DNA from: a bacterium
GTDB taxonomy: Bacteria; Patescibacteriota; Patescibacteriia; Veblenbacterales; UBA10138
Length of the DNA: 64,000 nt
NCBI GenBank assembly: GCA_020057885.1
Contig: JAGVEX010000019.1
Coordinates: forward strand, 84,045-148,044
Direction: 5' to 3'
Positions 1 through 28,729 of the stretch are shown piece after piece. The notes beneath the pieces were generated by a model. The model saw only the letters and a program-made list of their open reading frames with translations. It ran no database searches and had not been told where the DNA came from. Within the stretch, counting starts at the first letter, position 1. Every line of letters begins with the position of its first letter. The translations under genes were made by a program, and so were the position numbers.

Positions 1-2186
1 ACCAGCATTAGCCATAAAAACAGCCAATAGTTGACCAACTAGAATCGTGCCCGCAAGGAATCCTCCTAGTGCATATGGTCCAAGTAAAAATCCGACTAAA
101 ATTGGTGAGCTTATGGCTAAAAGGCCAGGGCCCACTAATTCTTTTTGTGCTGTGGTAGTACAAATACCTACCACCTTGGCATAGTCTGGACTTTTTGTGC
201 CGTTAATAATTTCTTTGTCACGAAATTGTAAACGGCACTCTTTTACAATATATCCTGCGGCTCTGCCAACAGCACGAATTAGCATAGAGCTAAACAAAAA
301 TGGCACAGCACCCCCTATTAGTAACCCAATAAACACAACTGGATCTGCTAATGTCATTTTGCCCGCTTGGTCAAAATATTGAACCAAGCTCATAGTATTT
401 ATTTTATCCTCACTACCAACTGCAATTACAGCAATAAATGAAGCAAACAACGAAACCGCTGCAATTACTGCTGAGCCAATAGCAATACCTTTGGTTTCGG
501 CTTTGGTGGTATTACCAACCGCATCAAGATCGGATAAAATTTGTCGGGCGCGTTTGTAACTTCCAGGCTCAACCTTTTCCATTTCTGCTTCATCATAACC
601 CATTTCGCCAATGCCATTGGCATTGTCACAAATTGGGCCGAAGACGTCCATAGAAATAGTGTTACCTGTAAGCGTAAGCATTCCGATTCCTGCCATAGCA
701 ATTCCATACGCCACAAACATCGGCGACGTTCCAGCGTAAACTAGTACGGAAAGATAAATCGCTCCGGCAATTACAATAATGGCAGCAACTGTACTTTCAT
801 ATCCTACCGCAAAGCCCTGAATAATATTTGTGGCATGTCCGGTCTGACAAGAGCGCGCCAAACTTTTGGTTGGCTCATATGAAACATGGGTAAAGTAACT
901 TGTTACTTTATTAAGAACAATTGCCAATATCACTCCAATTAAACAGGCGATAGCTGGGCGCATATCCAATCCCGGAATTCCCCAGTTAAAAAACCAACTT
1001 AGGGCTGTGGAATCACCACCAGGAAAAGCGGCAGCGACTCCAGGATAGTTAGCAATATAGCTTGCATCAAATCTGAGATAAAAAAATCCCAGTGTCAAAA
1101 AACCAACAACACTTATAGCTGATCCTACCCAAAATCCTCGATGGACACTAGCCAACGCCGAACTTGAACCCTTATTGTCATTAGCACGTACAGTGTAGGT
1201 ACTAATAATAGAACCGAACACGCCAATACCGCGCACAAGGAGCGGAAATATCACAGCGATATGCCCGAGTCCAGCCATACCAAGAATCATAGCAGCGACA
1301 ATTGTCACTTCATATGATTCAAAAATATCAGCAGCCATGCCAGCACAATCACCCACATTATCACCGACATTATCAGCAATAGTTGCAGCATTACGTGGAT
1401 CATCCTCGGGAATACCTTGTTCAATTTTACCAACCAAATCCGCACCAACATCAGCGGCTTTGGTATAAATTCCGCCACCTACGCGCATAAACAATGCCAG
1501 CAGAGTTCCACCAAAACCAAATCCTAAAAGTGCTTCATACGCCATTCCTCCAAAAAAAGAAATATAATGGTCCCACCAAGAAGGCCGAGACTATCAGTCA
1601 GCATACCGGTAACAGTTCCGGTTCTGTAACCTAACTGCATTGCTTGGCCATAACTTTTACGAGCGGCGGTAGCCACACGTAAATTACCTATGGTAGCAAG
1701 TCGCATACCATAATAGCCAACTAACCAGCTGAAGCTTGCCCCCATAATAAAAGCGAACGAGCGCCCCCAACGTAAAGCCGGTTCAGTTGTTGTGTTTGAT
1801 ATAAATAACAATACTGTAATTATGGCTATCAGGGGCCATATCTTGCGCGCTTGTATTTTTAGGTAACTATTGGCTCCTTGCCGAATGGCCTCAGCCACTT
1901 TTTGCATTTTAACTGTACCATTGTCGGCTGCATGCACTTGCCGAGAAAGCATATATGCGTACAACAAACCAATTAGAGCAACAACTAAAATAGATAGAAG
2001 TGCAATAATTTCTGTTTTGTTATAACTGGGATCAGTGAAAATCCCAAACAAAGAAAACTGCGCTGATGAATCTGCAACATCTTCACTTACTTGTACTTGT
2101 TCAAAACCTTTTGAACCAAGCAAAACAAAACAACTGGCAAAAAATGCCAAAACTGCAAATTGCCACAACATCCTTGATGTCTTCAT
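1..2186 (-). CDS. hppA: Membrane-bound proton/sodium-translocating pyrophosphatase (HppA). The C-terminus lies beyond the window start, and the reading frame switches near 1524-1590.
   Basis: The N-terminal ORF 1524..2186 has several transmembrane helices. A second open frame from about 1590 to 1 encodes 'LALFMRVGGGIYTKAADVGADLVGK...DNVGDNVGDCAGMAADIFESYEV', which are hallmark H+-PPase motifs. The two frames overlap only around an A7 homopolymer at 1552-1558. Confidence 0.8.
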
Positions 2187-2501
2187 TTTTGATCCTCTTT
2201 TTTATTTGTGTAATTTTAATATGAATGTGGTTATTTAATAATCCAGATAATTGAGCCAAATCAACAAACCCTTAAAACAAAGAAAAACAAATCTTTGTTT
2301 GTGTAACCCAAATTTATTAATTTGTTAAAATTCAATTTTATCTTAAATTTATTTTAAATTAAAACTACCTTAACAAAAATTGAGTAATCTGTCAACAGAA
2401 ATGTGTAATTTATTAATAAAAATCAACATCAAAACACCACCCTTATTATCAATGGTTTAAAATCTTTAACAATATTAACTTAATAATTTAGCAAACGGTT
2501 G

Positions 2502-2888
2502 TTAATTGGGTATCTTATTATGAATCGCCTGCTCCAATACAGCCTGCAAATCATCTATTAGTCCTTTTACCTTAGTACAATTTTTTTGGGCCTGCTTAAC
2601 GCCATAATCTTCATGGGAAAGAAAACAAAAAGCCTCCTCTAATAAAACATTTATCTCATTAACTTGATCTGGTGCAAATAAATCTAATTTACGGATAATT
2701 GATAAAGAATTTTCCGGTAACGATCGGCAATAATTATCTATCTCTGCTTGGTGGAGGAGATAAAATTCTTCTAATTTAAATTTAAACTTTTGCCTGAGAT
2801 CAGTGATTTCTTTTTCTACTTCTACATTTTGGTTATATATATTTTCTTTTAAATTAGTCTCTCCTTCAATCATATGCTTTTTTATCAT
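2502..2888 (-). CDS. Hypothetical cytoplasmic protein (128 aa), probably translationally coupled to the upstream membrane-protein gene through a 23-nt overlap.
   Basis: Complete ORF whose start overlaps the stop of ORF 2866..4260. No family recognised. Confidence 0.35.
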   Translation of the reverse strand: MIKKHMIEGETNLKENIYNQNVEVEKEITDLRQKFKFKLEEFYLLHQAEIDNYCRSLPENSLSIIRKLDLFAPDQVNEINVLLEEAFCFLSHEDYGVKQAQKNCTKVKGLIDDLQAVLEQAIHNKIPN

Positions 2889-4260
2889 TTAAAAATAAAA
2901 TCAACCACAGCAACATAAACATAGATGCTATGGTCCACCAATAGTGATCAAAAAGTGAAGTAATAGTAATCGGAATAATAAATATCAAATTACGAATTAT
3001 ATATGTTTTTAGTTTAAGCCACAAAAGCCAAATAAAAAATATTAGGCCTATAATACCAAATTCCGTTAATATGAGAAGAAAAATATTATGAACCGGTTGA
3101 TAACGATAAGCTCTATACCCAGGCTCAAAGCTAATTAAAGCAACCGTGTAATTGCCCATACCAACACCGTGCCACCAAGATTCTCTAAGTAAGCTCCGAC
3201 TTTCACCAATGCTCCCCACACGCTCATCAATGGATTGCTGTTCTAATTTTGAACCACCCATAAATCTGCCTACGGTTGGTTGCCAATATAAGACACCTAA
3301 AATAATAAAAACCAAGGCAGTAATTACCATCACACTCAAACTGTCATTGCGAGGAGCGAAGCAACGAAGCAATCTATTCGGATTGCCACGCTCCTCGACA
3401 AACTCGGGGCTCGCAATGACGTCGTGTTTATCTTTCCACCACCATAATCCTAAGGTAATAAATAAAGCCAGCCAAGCACCACGAGAAAAAGTAAAAAACA
3501 ACCCCGCAAGTTGAACTACATAAATTACTAACAACCATTTTGCATTTTGATTTTTTATTTTTACATTTTCTAAATATAGCCACACCGTAACTAAACAAGT
3601 TATAACTAGCAATCCCCCCAACACATTAGGATGCACCTGCCCAGCATAAGCCCTGAGCCACCTACCAGCTGATGTTAATACTACAGACGTGCCGGGTTGT
3701 GTTAAGGGGTGAATTGCCACTCCCAACCACTTATTGGCAAAAGTTGATTGTGTTAAAAATTGACTAATGCCCCACAAAGCCTGAATTGTGCCAGCAAAGG
3801 CTAAACTTAAAAATATTAAATTTAATTTTGGCTTAATAGTTTTTATTAAAAGCCATAGTATACCACCTTCCAACAATCTCGCACTCCAAACCATTGCCAA
3901 CAATTTATCTGTTGACCAAAAAATTGAAACAAGGGTATAAAGTAAAAGTAAAAGATAAATCACGCGAAAATCCAAATTCCAAAATCCAAATGTCAAAAAA
4001 TTTAAACTTTCAGATTTTGAGTTTGGTTTGGTATTTGAGCTTTGGATTTTGAAATTTTTAGCTTCCTGCCACATCAACGGCCAACTTATTACTAATAAAA
4101 CTATTAATAATATGTCCCAGCCGTATAATGAAATTCTTCCATATTCCCAAACCTCTCCATTAACTGGGATATCTCTAATAATCCACCTTGTTTGCCAAGG
4201 GAGGATAAATATTAATAAATAAAACAAATATTCTTTTATCTTAAATCTGGATAACCACAT
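2866..4260 (-). CDS. O-antigen ligase (Wzy_C/WaaL)-like polytopic membrane protein
   Basis: More than 10 predicted transmembrane segments. 'FTFSRGAWLALFITLGL' matches the conserved SRGA region of O-antigen ligase domains, with a large loop after it. Confidence 0.5.
   Translation of the reverse strand: MWLSRFKIKEYLFYLLIFILPWQTRWIIRDIPVNGEVWEYGRISLYGWDILLIVLLVISWPLMWQEAKNFKIQSSNTKPNSKSESLNFLTFGFWNLDFRVIYLLLLLYTLVSIFWSTDKLLAMVWSARLLEGGILWLLIKTIKPKLNLIFLSLAFAGTIQALWGISQFLTQSTFANKWLGVAIHPLTQPGTSVVLTSAGRWLRAYAGQVHPNVLGGLLVITCLVTVWLYLENVKIKNQNAKWLLVIYVVQLAGLFFTFSRGAWLALFITLGLWWWKDKHDVIASPEFVEERGNPNRLLRCFAPRNDSLSVMVITALVFIILGVLYWQPTVGRFMGGSKLEQQSIDERVGSIGESRSLLRESWWHGVGMGNYTVALISFEPGYRAYRYQPVHNIFLLILTEFGIIGLIFFIWLLWLKLKTYIIRNLIFIIPITITSLFDHYWWTIASMFMLLWLILFLNDKKAYD
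3343..3420. repeat. GC-rich nested palindromic element (78 bp) inserted in-frame inside the ligase-like ORF
   Basis: Perfect 11-bp terminal inverted repeats 'gtcattgcgag' and 'ctcgcaatgac'. An inner inverted pair 'gaggagcg' and 'cgctcctc'. The element looks much more GC-rich than the flanking coding sequence by eye. It encodes the hydrophilic insert 'HDVIASPEFVEERGNPNRLLRCFAPRNDSLSV'. Confidence 0.5.
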
Positions 4261-4337: not shown

Positions 4338-7316
4338 TTATAGAACTTTTTTCAACCATTGCCCCGTATAACTCTGCTTAGCCTTAACAATTTCCTTAGG
4401 TGTACCCTCGGCCACTAAATAGCCTCCTGCTTCACCACCCTCAGGGCCTAAATCAATTATCCAATCAGCACATTTAATAACATCCAAATTATGTTCAATT
4501 ACCAATATAGTATTACCACGCTCAACCAATTCGTTAAGCACCCTCAGCAAACACTTAACATCTTCAAAATGCAAACCAGTGGTTGGTTCGTCAAGAATAT
4601 AAAGCGTACGACCAGTAGAGCGGCGTGAAAGCTCAGTGGCCAACTTAATGCGTTGAGCCTCGCCACCAGAAAGCGTGGTAGCACTTTGCCCCAAATGAAT
4701 ATAGCCCAAACCAACATCACAAAGCACTTTTAATTTATCATGAATAATTGGCACATTTTCAAAAAAATTCATGGCCTCTTCAGCTGTCATCTCTAAAACA
4801 TCAGAAATATTTTTACCTTTATAGTGAATATCCAAAGCTTGCTGATTATAGCGCTTGCCATGACACTCTTCGCATTCTACATAAACATCTGGTAAAAAGT
4901 GCATTTCAATGCGCACCAAACCATCTCCCTCACAAGCCTCACAACGACCGCCTTTTACATTAAAGGAAAAGCGCCCTGGGTCGTAACCACGAATTTTAGC
5001 TTCGGGTAATTGCGAAAATAAATCACGTATTGGTGTAAATACTCCAGTATAAGTAGCCGGATTAGAACGTGGCGTGCGTCCAATTGGACTTTGATCAATA
5101 TCAATCACTTTATCAATATGTTCCAAACCTTTAATAGTTTTATGTTTGCCGGGCAATTCTTTGGAATTGTAAAAATGCTGGCCCAAGGCTTTAGCTAGAA
5201 TTTCGGTCATTAAAGTTGATTTACCAGAACCAGAAACGCCGGTAATACACACTAATTTTCCAAGCGGTATCTCAATATTAATATTTTTAAGATTAAATTC
5301 CTGAGCACCTTGAATGATAATTTTTTTACCATTACCAGAGTGTAGTTTAACAGGGATTGGAATAGTAGATTTACCGGAAAGATATTGACCAGTAAGTGAC
5401 TCTTTGATTTGCGCCACTTCCTGTGGCGTGCCTTGCGCCACCACTTCACCACCATGCTTGCCAGCACCAGGCCCAATATCAATTAACTGATCAGCCGCCA
5501 TCATAGTTTCATAATCATGCTCCACCACTATTACTGTATTACCTAAATCTCTCAATCGTTTCAAGGTGGTTATTAATTTATCATTATCACGCTGATGCAA
5601 ACCAATAGAAGGTTCATCTAAAATATAAATCACGCCAACTAAGCTCGAGCCAATTTGAGTAGCTAACCTAATACGTTGCGCCTCACCGCCGGAAAGTGTG
5701 GCAGCAGTGCGATCAAGTGATAAATAATCAAGCCCCACATCCGATAAAAACATAAGACGCTCGCGAATTTCTTTTATTATTTGCTTAGCAATTTTAAGTT
5801 CCCGTTCAGAAAGTTTGCTTTCTATACCTATAAAAAATTCTCTAGCTTTGATAACCGATAAAGTTGTAACTTCAGCTATATTTTTATCTAAAATTGTTAC
5901 TGCTAATATCTCCGGTTTTAGCCTTTTACCCTGACAAGTGGGGCAAGCCCATACGCGCATATAACGCTCAATTTCACTGCGCATATAATCGGATTCTGTT
6001 TCCTTATAACGGCGCTCTAGGTTAGGAATTACACCTTCAAAAGTAGTATAAAACTCGCGCACCTTGCCCATTTGGCCTTCGGCCGCATTTACATTATAAG
6101 TTTTGGCGCCAGTGCCATAAAATACTATTTTAAGCTGTTCACGGGTTAACTTATTCACCGGCATGTTTAAGGAAAAACCATTCTCCCGCGCCACCGCTTC
6201 CATAATTCTAAAATACCAAGTTTGATTAGCTGAAGTACGGGACCATGGTCTAATAGCGCCCTCAGCGAGTGAAAGACGCTTATTGGGAATTACTAAATCA
6301 GGATCTACCTCGAGTTTGGTGCCAAGCCCTGTACAAGACGAGCAAGCACCATGTGGTGAATTAAACGAAAAACTGCGCGGTTCAATATTGGGTAAATCTA
6401 CATTACAATGAGGACAAGAAAAATGTGCGCTAAATAAAAATTCCTCACCTGTATCTTGCCGTCTAACTTTAATAATACCGTCACCTAAATCAAGCGCGGT
6501 TTCTAACGAATCTGTTAAGCGGGTAATATCATCTGGATCTCGGGAAATATTCACTCTATCAACCACTACCTCAATAGTGTGGCGGCGTTGTTTGTCTACG
6601 CGCAAATCCTCGGCCTCGTCCATGGACATCAAATTGCCATCAAAACGCACACGCACGTAGCCGGCTTTTTTAAGCTCGGTAATAATGTGCCTATGTTCAC
6701 CTTTTTGGTCACGTATTACTGGCGCCAAAAGTTCTATACCAATTCCTAATGTAAGCTCGCCTAAACGCCCCACAATTTGATCCACTGTTTGTTTGGAAAC
6801 CTCGCGGCCACAAGAGGGACAATGCGGCTTGCCAATACGCGCAAAAAATAATCTTAAATAATCATAAATTTCTGTTACTGTGCCGACTGTGGAACGAGGA
6901 TTGTGCGAAGTTGATCTTTGGTCAATGGAAATAGCCGGGCTTAAACCTTCTATTTGGTCCACATCTGGCTTATCCATTACTCCCAAAAACTGCCTAGCGT
7001 AAGAAGAAAGTGATTCAATATAACGGCGCTGACCTTCGGCATAAATAGTATCAAAAGCCAATGATGATTTACCCGAACCAGAAAGCCCGGTTATCACCAC
7101 TAATTTATTGCGCGGAATATTCAGTGAAATATTTTTTAAATTGTGCACTCTGGCGCCGCGGATAACAATATTTTCCGCTGGGTGTAAATTACCATGCCCA
7201 TTGCTTCCGTTTTTAACCACACCACTAGTGAGACTGCTACTACCAAAAGACTTGCCATTACGAATTTTTGGCTGTACTGCTTTTACTTTTTTGACTTTTG
7301 AGTTAAATTTTGGCAT
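4338..7316 (-). CDS. uvrA: Excinuclease ABC subunit A (UvrA)
   Basis: 992 aa with two ABC ATPase modules ('[12 protein letters not shown]', '[10 protein letters not shown]', 'LSGGEAQR' twice), zinc-finger cysteine clusters, and '[12 protein letters not shown]'. Confidence 0.95.
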
Positions 7317-7424
7317 AGATACGCAAAGTAGAAGTAATTATACTACTCGTGTCAAGAGAGGTCAAGGGGTAAATAAAAAAGGGAGATTTAACAAAAATCT
7401 CCCCATGCAAACGCTTTGTTTTTC

Positions 7425-25289: not shown

Positions 25290-25386
25290 AATATACTCTC
25301 TTTTTTTTTATTTTTATTTCGCACCAACGTCCAAGGCTCGGTGCCGCCTTATTTTTTCTAATTATCACTGCTATTAATATTCTTAC

Positions 25387-25860
25387 CTAGCCGTGACCAC
25401 CACCATCACTAAAACTGTAGCCGCCCTCTCTAGGATACACTGAGAGTAAATATATATGGTCACAATCCAACGTGGAACAAATAGCTATGGTTATACATTT
25501 ACTTGCATTGTCCTTTGCTCTTTCTGGGGTTGAGTACATTGCTTCGTTGCCTGTAGCGCCGTCACTTCCTAAATAAACTTTCATGCGAAACATCGGCTTA
25601 CAACAATGATTTTCTTTTGAACCCCAATTCATGTACCACCCCGCGTAGTCAACGCATATCACAGCTCGTTTTTCCATGCCAGCCATTTTTTTAGCGAACT
25701 CTTTTGCTAAACCTTCCTTCTTCTGAATCAAATCTGACGATGGCGCCTTTGAGCTCCACCTAAGAAACCTTAACATTGCAACCCACACTCCTGCTGCTAC
25801 GATGACGAATAAAATAACTATTGGTAACATCATTCCTATTGCGTTCATGGTTACTTTCAC
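25387..25860 (-). CDS. Hypothetical membrane-anchored Cys-containing protein (157 aa)
   Basis: N-terminal transmembrane helix. No family recognised. Confidence 0.35.
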   Translation of the reverse strand: MKVTMNAIGMMLPIVILFVIVAAGVWVAMLRFLRWSSKAPSSDLIQKKEGLAKEFAKKMAGMEKRAVICVDYAGWYMNWGSKENHCCKPMFRMKVYLGSDGATGNEAMYSTPERAKDNASKCITIAICSTLDCDHIYLLSVYPREGGYSFSDGGGHG

Positions 25861-25894
25861 CTTTCTTTTTTATATTATTAATATGTTTTGAATT

Positions 25895-26050
25895 GTTAAA
25901 GAACAAAAACCCTTCTCGCGTTGAGAGGGGTTAGGGGTACTGAAAGCTTCGCTTTCACCCCGATGTCTATCGGGGTGGTTGCTAAAGCAACCAAAATTTA
26001 AAACAGCACCACTCACCGCTCTCTGCGAGCGCTAATGGCATGATGAGTTA
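25895..26050. other. GC-rich cluster of four consecutive hairpins. It may be a structured RNA or leader.
   Basis: Stems 'cccttctc'/'gagagggg', 'caccccgat'/'atcggggtg', 'ggttgc'/'gcaacc' and 'gcgctc'/'gagcgc' lie within about 150 nt of otherwise AT-rich spacer. Confidence 0.25.
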
Positions 26051-26110
26051 AAACTGCGTTAGAAATTAAAATTAAATTCATAAAATTACTTAAATTATAC
26101 CTTTTTTTCT

Positions 26111-26138
26111 TGTATCAATGTGTTAACACATTGATACA
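26111..26138. promoter_or_regulatory. 28-bp perfect palindrome centred on GTTAAC ('tgtatcaatgtgttaacacattgataca'), a trp-operator-like site
   Basis: It lies just downstream of the TrpR-like gene. A related half-site lies in the divergent promoter region at 26492. Confidence 0.5.
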
Positions 26139-26176
26139 TATCATTATAGATCTAAACTACTAAGAATAAACAATAA

Positions 26177-26473
26177 TTATTTAAAACCTAAACGGGTTAA
26201 TACCAAACGGTAACCTCCCATACCCTGCCTTAACCAATGGGCCACACGCGCTACAGTAGTAGTGCTCATTCCCAAACGTCCCGCAATATCACGATAATCT
26301 AAGTCTCGCGATAGCATTTTAGCCACTTGAAGCCTATCAGCCATGTCCACTATTTCCTCTGGCGTGCAAAGATCCCTAAAAAATTTACGGCACTCGTCTG
26401 TTGTTTTAATCTTTAAAATAGCCTCAAATAGCTCGTTGGCCTCTTGTCTATCCCATTTCTTAGCACGTTTCAT
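26177..26473 (-). CDS. TrpR-like DNA-binding protein (YerC/YecD family)
   Basis: 98 aa with a C-terminal HTH ('YRDIAGRLGMSTTTVARVAHWL'). Size and pattern match YerC/YecD. Confidence 0.65.
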   Translation of the reverse strand: MKRAKKWDRQEANELFEAILKIKTTDECRKFFRDLCTPEEIVDMADRLQVAKMLSRDLDYRDIAGRLGMSTTTVARVAHWLRQGMGGYRLVLTRLGFK

Positions 26474-26491
26474 AAAATAATATATTACTTC

Positions 26492-26520
26492 CTTTTGTAT
26501 TAATGTATTAACACGTTAAC
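26492..26520. promoter_or_regulatory. Operator-like half-site plus a 'ttaacac' direct repeat ('tgtattaatgtattaacacgttaacaca') between the regulator gene and glyA
   Basis: 19 of 20 nt match the left arm of the 26111 palindrome. Confidence 0.4.
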
Positions 26521-26609
26521 ACAGGGTTAAAATAATGTCAAATAAAAATTGTGGATAACTTACTAACCAATGGACAAAGGCTTAAAATATCGCTAATATA
26601 AAAGACGCT

Positions 26610-27902
26610 ATGTTAAACTATCTCTCTCAAACAGATTCTGAAATAGAGGCTTGGATAAAGCATGAACTTGAACGCCAACGCCATGGCTTAGAAATGATCC
26701 CTTCGGAAAATTTTACTTCACTCGCGGTAATGGAAGCTCTGGGCTCAATTTTGACTAACAAATACTCCGAGGGTTACCCCGGTAAACGTTACTATGGTGG
26801 CAATGAGTTTATAGATGAGATAGAAAACTTAACGCGTGAACGAGCTAAAAAACTTTTTGGTGTGGAACATGCTAATGTACAACCCTATTCCGGTTCACCT
26901 GCTAATCAAGCAGTATATTTTGCCCTACTTAATCCTGGCGACACTGTGCTCGGTATGGAACTAGCGCAAGGCGGACATTTAACGCACGGTTACAAATTAA
27001 ACTTTTCTGGTAAATATTATAAAGCGGTGAGTTATGGTGTTGATTCTAAAACGCATTTGCTTAACTACGAAGCTATTAGAGAAATTGCTCTTAAAGAAAA
27101 ACCTAAACTTATTATTTGCGGGGCCACGGCTTATCCACGAACAATTGATTTTGCCGCCTTCCGTAAAATAGCTGATGAAGTAAAAGCTTATCTCTTGGCA
27201 GACATTTCGCATATTTCCGGTTTAATAATTGCTGGCGTGCATCCCTCACCAGTGCCTTACGCTGATGTTGTTATGACCACAACCCACAAAACTCTGCGCG
27301 GACCAAGAGGCGCTATGATTTTAGTACCAAAAGTAATTGACCGCTGGCATGAAATTTATCATCCGACCAGCAAGCGCAACCTAGCGGAACTTATTGACGC
27401 GGCCATTATACCTGGCTTGCAAGGTGGACCGCACAATCACCAAACTGCTGCCATTGCCGTGGCCTTAAAAGAAGCAGCTACAGTTGAATTCAAAACTTAT
27501 GGACAACAAATTGTAAAAAATGCCAAAACTTTAGCAGAGACTCTAGTTAAAAAGGGTTTTACTTTAATAACTTCTGGCACCGACAATCATTTAATACTAA
27601 TTGACCTCACAACACAAAATATAACCGGCCAGCAGGCACAAGTGTTGCTTGATAGTGTTGGCATCACTGTTAATAAAAACTTAGTTCCTTATGACACGCG
27701 CACACCACTCGATCCTTCTGGTATTCGTTTAGGCACACCAGCACTCACCAGCCGCGGTTTTAGAGAAGAAGATATGTTAATAGTAGGAGAAATTATTGCT
27801 GCCGTACTTTCTAATCCGCAAAATGAAACAATATTGGCACAAGCCAGACAAAAAGTTAAAGAGCTCACAGATAAATATCCCCTATATCCAGAACTCAATT
27901 GA
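26610..27902 (+). CDS. glyA: Serine hydroxymethyltransferase
   Basis: PLP-lysine region 'TTTHKTLRGPRG'. 430 aa. Confidence 0.95.
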   Translation: MLNYLSQTDSEIEAWIKHELERQRHGLEMIPSENFTSLAVMEALGSILTNKYSEGYPGKRYYGGNEFIDEIENLTRERAKKLFGVEHANVQPYSGSPANQAVYFALLNPGDTVLGMELAQGGHLTHGYKLNFSGKYYKAVSYGVDSKTHLLNYEAIREIALKEKPKLIICGATAYPRTIDFAAFRKIADEVKAYLLADISHISGLIIAGVHPSPVPYADVVMTTTHKTLRGPRGAMILVPKVIDRWHEIYHPTSKRNLAELIDAAIIPGLQGGPHNHQTAAIAVALKEAATVEFKTYGQQIVKNAKTLAETLVKKGFTLITSGTDNHLILIDLTTQNITGQQAQVLLDSVGITVNKNLVPYDTRTPLDPSGIRLGTPALTSRGFREEDMLIVGEIIAAVLSNPQNETILAQARQKVKELTDKYPLYPELN

Positions 27903-28729
27903 TTTTTATGATTACGTTTCTCAAGGGTAAAGAACTAGCCGCTAGTCTACGTCAAGAACTGGCTGACAAAGTTAAAGAACTTAACTTCACCCCCAAGCTC
28001 GGGGTGATTTTGGTTGGCAGTGATCCAGCTTCACAGCTTTATGTTGATTTAAAAGAAAAGGCGGCGGCTGAAGTTGGTATAAAAGTGGATAAAAAATTAT
28101 TTCCCAAAAATATAGACGAAGCTTCTGTTATAAATCAAATTACCGAATTTAATAACAGAAAAGATATTAATGCTATCCTAATTCAATTGCCTCTGCCACC
28201 GCAACTAAATGAGCAAACTATAATTGAAACTATGGATTTTAAAAAAGACGCTGATGGTTTTCATCCTCAAAATCTCCAGGCTTTTTTAGAAAATAAAAAA
28301 TCTATTACTCCGGGAGTAAGCCAAGGAATTATTAAACTTGTTGAATTAGCTCAGCAAAACCTGGCTGGGAAAAAGGCTGTTTTATTAGTTAACAGCCAAG
28401 AATTTGCCGCTCCTTTAATAAAGTTATTAAATCAACTAAAAATGGAAGTTGAGGTTATAACACAATTAGAACCAACTGTATTACTTGGGGCAGATGTTAT
28501 TGTTGTGGCTATTGGCAGGCCTCACACCATCAAAAGTGAACATATAAAAAATGGCGCCATTGTAATAGATGTGGGCACCACTAAATTAGGAAATCGTATT
28601 GTAGGAGATGTAGATACTAGTGGGCTTGATGTAAAAAATATATTTATCACGCCAGTGCCTGGCGGAGTTGGGCCAATGACTGTGGCCATGCTTTTATGGA
28701 ACGTATATTATTTGGCTACTCAAAAATAA
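27899..28729 (+). CDS. folD: Bifunctional methylenetetrahydrofolate dehydrogenase/cyclohydrolase (the start is more likely the ATG at 27908)
   Basis: FolD layout and motifs ('LIQLPLPPQL', 'ITPVPGGVGPMTVAMLL'). Confidence 0.9.
   Translation: MIFMITFLKGKELAASLRQELADKVKELNFTPKLGVILVGSDPASQLYVDLKEKAAAEVGIKVDKKLFPKNIDEASVINQITEFNNRKDINAILIQLPLPPQLNEQTIIETMDFKKDADGFHPQNLQAFLENKKSITPGVSQGIIKLVELAQQNLAGKKAVLLVNSQEFAAPLIKLLNQLKMEVEVITQLEPTVLLGADVIVVAIGRPHTIKSEHIKNGAIVIDVGTTKLGNRIVGDVDTSGLDVKNIFITPVPGGVGPMTVAMLLWNVYYLATQK

Follow-up and report, generated by a model that had tools for sequence, protein, structure and literature searches.

The locus described here raises the question of what a small regulator of the TrpR family senses, and which genes it controls, when its gene lies between two palindromes, ahead of two small genes and divergently from glyA and folD. 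Throughout the text, the window is the whole stretch of DNA that was analysed (64 kb), the coordinates of the features are collected in Table 1, and numbers such as L001 designate loci found in other genomes and metagenomes. The 98-aa product of the regulator gene matches the Pfam family PF01371 (Trp_repressor) at 3e-23 and the NCBIfam model TIGR02531 (yecD_yerC) at 86.2 bits, above the cut-off of 42.2, which bears out the view of an earlier note on this DNA that the regulator belongs to the TrpR family and is of the YerC/YecD type. The protein falls below the cut-off of the TrpR equivalog model TIGR01321 (30.8 vs 67.25 bits). Its best relatives in the PDB are 3FRW, 3G1C and 3KOR (E 1e-19 to 1e-17), and these nearest solved structures are HisR-type proteins. 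On these sequence matches, we assign the 98-aa protein to the HisR-type (YerC/YecD) branch of the TrpR family. Its recognition helix reads STTTVARVAHW where the Firmicutes HisR structures have STATISRVNRS, a difference that counts against the explanation favoured below. YerC of B. subtilis is the histidine repressor HisR, the HisR of R. gnavus requires L-histidine for binding to its site, autoregulation is frequent among HisR proteins, and proteobacterial HisR is located before the his operon (PMC9413887).

Both palindromes are likely to be operators of this repressor, as predicted from their sequence and position, and are called operators A and B below. Operator A, the perfect 28-bp palindrome already reported downstream of the regulator, begins 38 nt after the yerC stop codon (minus-strand ORF 26177-26473), and not 40 nt after it as first stated. 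On the upstream side, where a half-site and a direct repeat had been described, there is instead a full imperfect palindrome, operator B, in the same register as operator A. By eye, the two operators are identical at 23 of 28 bases and operator B is self-complementary at 22 of 28 positions; a repeat comparison gave 83% over 29 nt. The likeness to the trp operator pointed out earlier holds for the half-site geometry, for the TGTA...TACA ends and, in site A, for the GTTAAC centre. A degenerate pattern covering both operators had no further match in the 64 kb and none in 100 shuffles. With a weight matrix, the two operators scored 41 and 40 bits, shuffled sequence reached at most 11.7 bits, and the scan of the 64 kb returned no third operator, the next independent match being below 12 bits.

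The internal organization of the sites was analysed on 17 of them, gathered without the metagenome pattern. Cutting each site into octamers, two on the top strand (positions 1-8 and 9-16) and two on the bottom strand (positions 13-20 and 21-28, as reverse complements), yields YGTRTTAA each time; of the 68 octamers, 34 are either TGTATTAA, with 19 occurrences, or TGTGTTAA, with 15. The 28-mer is thus composed of two 20-bp units that overlap, one spanning positions 1-20 and the other, offset by 8 bp, positions 9-28; each is an octamer, N4 and an inverted octamer, which is the geometry of TrpR- and HisR-type operators. The motif TGTAnTArnnnnyTnTTACA predicted for proteobacterial HisR (PMC9413887) fits each 20-bp half. 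The two inner half-sites are adjacent and the best conserved of the four; since they are out of reach for one HTH dimer, the simplest reading is that two dimers bind in tandem. We infer from the sequence that each 28-bp site would accommodate two repressor dimers placed 8 bp apart. Among the matches listed, about a dozen loci carry an extra match shifted by exactly 8 bp, that is, a third unit. When TrpR binds in tandem, the half-sites are phased by 8 bp. Tandem binding is known for TrpR, according to the statement in PMC7248756 that cites Lawson and Carey (1993).

Table 1. Predicted features of the locus, with their positions in the window.
Feature	Position	Strand	Remark
Second downstream gene, 99 aa	24990-25289	-	ORF calls
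First gene after the attenuator, membrane-anchored Cys-rich protein, 153-157 aa	25387-25860	-	ORF calls
Intrinsic terminator, CCCCUCUC-loop-GAGAAGGG, then UUUUUGUUCUUU (UUUUU)	25898-25930	-	Fold and sequence
Attenuator region 3 (CAGUACCCCUAACCCCUCUC)	25923-25942	-	Antiterminator with region 2
Three additional hairpins between regions 2 and 3	25942-25992	-	Found only in the window
Attenuator region 2 (GAGAGCGGUGAGUGGUGCUG)	26004-26023	-	Pairs with region 1 or 3
Leader ORF MNLILISNAVLTHHAISARRER, then stop, 22 codons	26013-26081	-	His-His codons 26040-26045
Attenuator region 1	26024-26048	-	Pairs with region 2
TATAAT -10 box	26094-26099	-	11 nt after operator A, 12 nt before leader ATG
Operator A, perfect 28-bp palindrome TGTATCAATGTGTTAACACATTGATACA	26111-26138	.	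Between yerC stop and leader promoter
yerC-type repressor gene, 98 aa	26177-26473	-	PF01371 and TIGR02531 matches
Operator B, imperfect 28-bp palindrome TGTATTAATGTATTAACACGTTAACACA	26496-26523	.	Overlaps yerC -10 and transcription start
-10 TAACGT, yerC promoter	26513-26518	-	Inside operator B, 17 nt after -35
-35 TTGACA, yerC promoter	26536-26541	-	TTGAC invariant in alignment
Invariant TTATCCACA (DnaA-box word)	26550-26558	-	8 nt upstream of yerC -35
glyA promoter TGGACA-17-TAATAT	26571-26599	+	Separate from operator B, 10 nt before ATG 26610

A protein-based scan restricted to one genome per species yielded 15 loci. Two of these are labelled Gammaproteobacteria and one simply "bacterium"; for most, the label is Patescibacteria or another CPR lineage, L003 being from a Kerfeldbacteria MAG. 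The operator motif lies beside the yerC homologue in 12 of these 15 loci, upstream in most of them, and on both sides of the gene in L001, L002, L003 and L005; operator A is kept at the same place in these four and in L077. By scanning metagenomes with the DNA pattern, we obtained at least 120 loci. Among the matches listed, 111 are non-redundant and 43 of these have a yerC homologue at most 150 bp from the site, a proximity that cannot be chance for a 300-bp gene. As the metagenome sites were selected by the pattern, they are uninformative on the variability of the motif. Many of the metagenome matches with the all-AT palindrome TGTATTAATGTATTAATACATTAATACA are far from any yerC and lie among unrelated genes; part of them may be chance or unrelated sequences, and they were set aside as evidence. 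A mobile element with repeats flanking yerC was dropped as a reading, since in most loci there is only one site and a transposase is absent.

Downstream of operator A, the TATAAT box is a putative leader promoter, although its -35 element is poor (TTGATA, within the operator and only 13 nt away). The leader ORF that follows has no Shine-Dalgarno sequence, so that leaderless or near-leaderless initiation would be needed. After the leader ORF come a structured stretch rich in GC and then the terminator. Region 2 comprises the stop together with the last codons of the leader and the 9 nt beyond, and the 3' half of region 3 is the 5' arm of the terminator. The locus thus contains what defines an amino acid attenuator, namely an antiterminator and an intrinsic terminator that exclude each other, with an antiterminator 5' strand that a ribosome at the stop would cover, and a short ORF (22 codons) with tandem codons, His-His, for the amino acid that would be sensed. 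The leader-attenuator unit is also found in L001, L002, L003, L005 and L077, while in L004 operator A is deleted and the leader forms an in-frame fusion with the 3' end of yerC.

The three helices were compared in seven loci. The 17-bp antiterminator (2:3) has 91.6% of its cells paired (47-58% in slid controls) and three compensatory pairs, the terminator (3:4) 87.5% (48-70%) and one compensatory pair, and helix 1:2 79.8% (37-66%) and three compensatory pairs. From 11 to 32 of 500 shuffles reach the values of the antiterminator, a modest support that comes from seven related sequences. We also folded the RNA with 30 nt covered to mimic the ribosome. Unmasked, the RNA of the window folds into helix 1:2 and the terminator; masked at the second His codon, it forms the antiterminator without the terminator; masked at the leader stop, it forms the terminator. 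The same switching was obtained with L002 and L011, and partly with L001. In L005, L077 and L003, the antiterminator is already present in the free fold, which counts against switching, and the masked folds of L092, L100, L130, L024, L049, L029 and L102 gave a leader-overlapping hairpin and the terminator, with no antiterminator.

Histidine codons recur in leaders at other loci. Among the matches listed, HH is present in 15 of the 99 short ORFs that start at most 60 nt from an operator; the control ORFs taken at these loci number 7,480 and contain it in 1.8% of cases (p = 4e-10, for loci that are partly non-independent). Leaders with HHH, HHH and HH directly follow yerC in L006, L015 and L008, respectively, where there is no second operator and the terminator comes next; HHH is also found in the leader of L099. 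Apart from this, the leaders next to operators differ in sequence, as exemplified by MKQTFFQFNHHKIDLC, MNLFSHHLQDDLA, MKLIKASKKRNHHHTLAWFVRRR and MKLQKSKQNLNHHKNRL, the last of which precedes hisG in L092. Synonymous CAT/CAC changes preserve His in L049, L092, L011 and L102. The leaders of L003, L045 and L085 have HQ or QH instead of HH, and that of L077 has H-N-H. The leader of the window contains only two His codons, which counts against the histidine explanation, as do these variants and the lack of any his gene, hisS or other recurrent regulon member in the 64 kb.

The genomic context adds to this association. The motif adjoins a Pfam-confirmed hisG in at least eight loci, including high-GC loci where the operator is directly upstream of hisR-hisG. 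In two Kaiserbacteria loci, yerC stands directly before hisG-hisD, and a histidyl-tRNA-synthetase-like gene directly follows yerC in L009 and is one gene away from it in L012 (hisD and the synthetase-like genes were labelled by reading the translations). As in HisR systems, palindromic operators with the 20-bp geometry are found near the promoters that would be regulated and next to the repressor's own gene.

Taken together, these data point to histidine sensing, and the explanation that we consider probable combines a HisR-type repressor, two operators and a His-His leader attenuator. The observations concern the sequences and their conservation, the alternative helices and the genomic associations; from them we infer repressor binding, the effector, the promoters, ribosome stalling and the direction of regulation, as follows. 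The repressor bound to operator B would block transcription of yerC, as suggested by the position of the site. Operator A would act on the leader promoter and would also block read-through coming from yerC. A ribosome stalled at the His codons would leave region 2 free to form the antiterminator (2:3), with read-through into the two small genes, while a ribosome at the leader stop would cover region 2 and let region 3 pair with region 4 into the terminator. Control would therefore be dual, a co-repressor acting via the repressor and charged tRNA-His via the leader. By analogy with HisR, the co-repressor would most likely be free L-histidine.

The same architecture could answer to another ligand, such as a nucleotide- or PRPP-related metabolite, or to none. 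We regard this as rather unlikely, since the His codons of the leaders, the association with hisG and the published histidine dependence of HisR (PMC9413887) all speak against it, even though the motif also adjoins a PNP_UDP_1 phosphorylase and a SLOG+AstE/AspA protein, PRTase-like (L014), OMP-decarboxylase-like (L124) and DHODH-like (L131) targets were recognized by eye, and there are no his genes within the 64-kb window. For the latter point, a tblastn search of the window with HisG, HisD, a HisS-like protein and the target families that recur returned nothing.

A second possibility keeps the repressor and the operators as described and takes the short ORF as untranslated, the RNA being a ligand-sensing riboswitch or a stand-alone small RNA with its own terminator. 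The leader RNA is indeed strongly structured (z = -4.7) and is conserved while the downstream genes vary among loci, and the missing Shine-Dalgarno sequence as well as the Gln that replaces His in a few relatives would be readily accommodated. However, Rfam 15 at gathering score returned only two tRNAs over the whole window, and a search of 25840-26200 at E <= 10 gave short, unrelated chance matches, which places the structured leader region outside the known RNA families; searches with the conserved element of L130, L045 and L011 gave nothing. In addition, the ATG, the frame and the stop inside region 2 are kept despite nucleotide divergence, HH or HHH recurs among leaders of unrelated sequence, and the CAT/CAC changes described above are of the kind that maintain His. 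An untranslated RNA of this type is therefore unlikely.

Operator B brings us to the divergent genes. glyA (26610-27902) and folD (27899-28729) are divergent from yerC, and the coordinates confirm the 136-bp region shared by yerC and glyA that had been noticed before. On the yerC side, the -10 element (TAAYGT, 17-nt spacer) falls on operator positions 6-11, and operator B is at a constant 12-13 nt from the -35. The arrangement TTATCCACA-N8-10-TTGAC-N12-13-operator was found in 24 loci (the window and 23 others). The -10 of yerC and its start site both lie under operator B; this position suggests autorepression, and the most likely role of the site is that the repressor shuts off its own promoter. 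On the other side, the -35 (26571-26576) and -10 (26594-26599) of the putative glyA promoter are invariant across the aligned loci, and the glyA start region shows no Shine-Dalgarno sequence. The spacing between operator B and this promoter differs among loci, being about 47 bp in the window and reaching about 70 bp in L002, and the centre of operator B lies near position -95 of the glyA promoter.

It had been proposed that the regulator is linked to one-carbon metabolism, and one may thus suppose that it controls glyA-folD via the shared region and senses Ser, Gly or a folate. The location of operator B within this region and the divergent arrangement maintained in eight loci agree with such a control, as do a promoter-like TTAACA-17-AATAAT on the glyA strand that overlaps operator B in the window and, in L015, genes annotated by eye as thyA, folA, dut and dCMP deaminase near yerC. 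Against it, the TTAACA-17-AATAAT element is not conserved in L001 or L003, whereas the conserved glyA promoter lies next to the ATG with operator B about 95 bp upstream at a variable distance, and among the loci listed no site was found upstream of glyA or folD without an intervening yerC. The neighbourhood is also restricted to one clade: the divergent glyA is present only in the closest relatives (eight loci, with GlyA at least about 63% identical and YerC 69% identical), and in more distant ones hisG-hisD, hisS or unknown genes take its place. What stands behind the one-carbon link is synteny within that clade; the downstream palindrome precedes a His-His leader and an attenuator unrelated to glyA, the hisG neighbours at the motif concern histidine, and YerC of B. 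subtilis is HisR (PMC9413887). Control of glyA-folD would account neither for a second operator nor for the His leaders or the association with hisG, and we hold it to be improbable; the evidence points to histidine sensing over one-carbon metabolism.

Finally, it is very improbable that site A is a yerC terminator or a 3' stabilising hairpin with an incidental likeness to site B: 38 nt beyond the stop, its transcript would fold into a hairpin (12 bp, about -15 kcal/mol), but what follows is AGAAAAAAAGG without a U tract, so that it is not an intrinsic terminator, the site is AT-rich and went unreported by the terminator scan, its sequence matches site B and the sites upstream of yerC and hisG elsewhere beyond what pairing requires, and in L004, L006, L008 and L015, which have no site A, the leader still directly follows yerC.

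The HisR-type repressor with its His-His leader recalls the trp operon of E. coli, in which a TrpR-fold repressor acts at a promoter operator and the trpL leader carries two tandem regulatory codons, with the alternative helices 1:2, 2:3 and 3:4 in the attenuator. The locus shares with it the TrpR-fold repressor, the leader with two tandem codons, the alternative helices and the 8-bp phasing of the half-sites. It differs in using His instead of Trp codons, in its target genes, in a protein that misses the TrpR equivalog cut-off and in the operator word, GTRTT in place of GNACT. With the enterobacterial hisL (Rfam His_leader), the locus has in common a His-codon leader peptide that would govern an intrinsic terminator; there are two or three His codons here as against seven in hisL, the Rfam model matches the region neither in sequence nor in structure, and here the leader is paired with a protein repressor.

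Also among the closest known systems are the HisR regulons (Ashniev et al. 2022, PMC9413887), which likewise associate a PF01371/TIGR02531 protein with a palindromic operator. The half-site fits the motif predicted for proteobacterial HisR, the autoregulation suggested here has its counterpart there, and the site adjoins hisG in several loci. In contrast to these regulons, the locus belongs to a different phylum, Patescibacteria, its operator is 28 bp long with two overlapping 20-bp units and sometimes a third in phase, no his gene is present and the targets are unannotated small proteins, and the repressor and the His-leader attenuator would act on the same transcription unit. Attenuators were sought in PMC9413887 and reported only upstream of his genes outside HisR control. 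The new features are the phylum, an operator doubled with 8-bp phasing, the combination of HisR with a His-leader attenuator, and target genes that have no relation to known histidine genes.

Knowledge of transcription regulation in the CPR (Candidate Phyla Radiation) is very scarce, and the locus, with one small repressor, two operators that are nearly identical and an attenuator of 190 nt, is a compact module amenable to direct tests. If the histidine explanation is true, it extends the HisR regulon to a new phylum, it implies that HisR operators, like that of TrpR, can be arranged in tandem with 8-bp phasing, and it provides a histidine counterpart of the repressor-plus-attenuator control of the trp operon. 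For annotation, it corrects the tempting reading of the regulator as controlling glyA-folD. More tentatively, one could imagine that, in an ultra-small genome that perhaps does not make histidine, the repressor and the two-His-codon attenuator jointly gate a cassette of small lineage-specific proteins, located in the membrane or secreted, and perhaps glyA-folD as well. Histidine would be read twice, as the free amino acid and as charged tRNA-His, and would serve as a general signal of the nutrients supplied by a host instead of as feedback on a biosynthetic pathway. The logic of the trp operon would then have been assembled independently for histidine, with a double 8-bp-phased operator, a scenario that we find conceivable but doubtful.

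Of the two proteins encoded behind the attenuator, neither the 157-aa nor the 99-aa one has a match in Pfam or NCBIfam, and a homologue search with the 157-aa protein retrieved only three relatives among 5.8 billion sequences, none of them annotated; its gene probably starts at the ATG at 25848. Pfam likewise returned nothing for the 115-aa protein of L001, the 427-aa protein of L015 and the C13 and C22 proteins. At other loci, the genes behind the operator-leader module encode HisG, a PNP_UDP_1 phosphorylase, a SLOG+AstE/AspA fusion or members of unknown families. The candidate histidine-responsive families are the 153-157-aa, the 99-aa and the about-400-aa proteins and the SLOG+AstE/AspA fusion. 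In L001, the homologue of the 99-aa protein has an operator of its own, and the corresponding stretch is deleted in the window. As a separate observation, the family of about 400 aa recurs behind His leaders, as does the SLOG+AstE/AspA fusion.

The operator-bearing promoters share a sequence beyond the repressor site itself. The word TTATCCACA, which perfectly matches a DnaA box, lies invariantly 8-10 nt 5' of the -35 TTGAC of such promoters in 24 loci among the matches listed, those named being the window and the compared loci L001-L006, L015, L022, L024, L049, L052, L068, L077, L085, L090, L092, L096, L100 and L130. It is additionally found at two operator-less promoters (L006:932 and L036:792). 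The word could be a site for DnaA or another activator, or else a lineage-specific upstream promoter element. On the other side of this divergent region, the conserved glyA promoter ends 9-10 nt before the glyA ATG and the start lacks a Shine-Dalgarno sequence, suggesting from the DNA that the glyA mRNA is leaderless or nearly so.

Coordinates of the features in the window and in the compared loci (L-numbered)
Feature	Position	Strand	Remark
glyA promoter TnGACA-17-TAnTAT	window 26571-26612	+	conserved
DnaA-box word	window 26550-26558	-	upstream of -35 TTGAC
Three extra GC-rich hairpins	window 25942-25992	-	between attenuator regions 2 and 3
yerC ORF fused in frame to His leader	L004 4270-4330		...LGLMHHAVHTRGER*
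Structured element	L130 about 6330-6440; L045 about 5450-5560; L011 about 3100-3200		between terminator and next gene
380- to 470-aa protein family	L006 4640-6061; L008 4526-5668; L015 4537-5820		three CPR loci; behind yerC and HH/HHH leader-attenuator
Gly-rich tails	window 25387-25400; L001 6540-6567, 7260-7286; L002 4190-4219

The leader-attenuator layout differs between the window and its relatives. The extra hairpins are seen in the window only, whereas region 3 follows region 2 almost directly in the relatives. In L004, where yerC runs into the His leader, operator A and the spacer are absent and the attenuator therefore lies immediately 3' of the repressor gene. Within the compared stretch 6780-6975, L001 carries a third operator 90 nt 5' of the 99-aa gene, while the window (corresponding stretch 25290-25386) has kept the flanks of this site and lost the operator itself by a deletion of about 30 nt.

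Beyond the terminator, L130, L045 and L011 contain a conserved element with two hairpins. These read CCGNUCAGUGAAAYCGG and GCCGGUGCAARACYGGC, and some base changes in them appear to be compensatory. An Rfam search with this element gave no match; possibly it is a riboswitch of an unknown class, stacked on the attenuator.

Regarding the proteins encoded behind the operators and leaders, the listed GTG start of the window's 157-aa ORF falls within the likely Shine-Dalgarno sequence AAAGGTGA (compared start region 25848-25860); the ATG at 25848 is more likely the true start judged by sequence, giving 153 aa, the length of the P0001 entry. The gene of the 380- to 470-aa family is a candidate for histidine-responsive expression; its L015 member had no match in Pfam. 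In L015 (Komeilibacteria), by-eye annotation places yerC amid dCMP deaminase-, dut-, folA- and thyA-like genes (1938-3846 and 5990-7407). This is an independent second case of yerC lying near folate and nucleotide genes, which may be due to chance. Among the small proteins encoded behind operators, several have a Gly-rich tail at the C-terminus (...DGGGHG, ...VGGGGN, ...GGGGGIKWRH and ...GLSGGLEH), which may constitute a common C-terminal signal.
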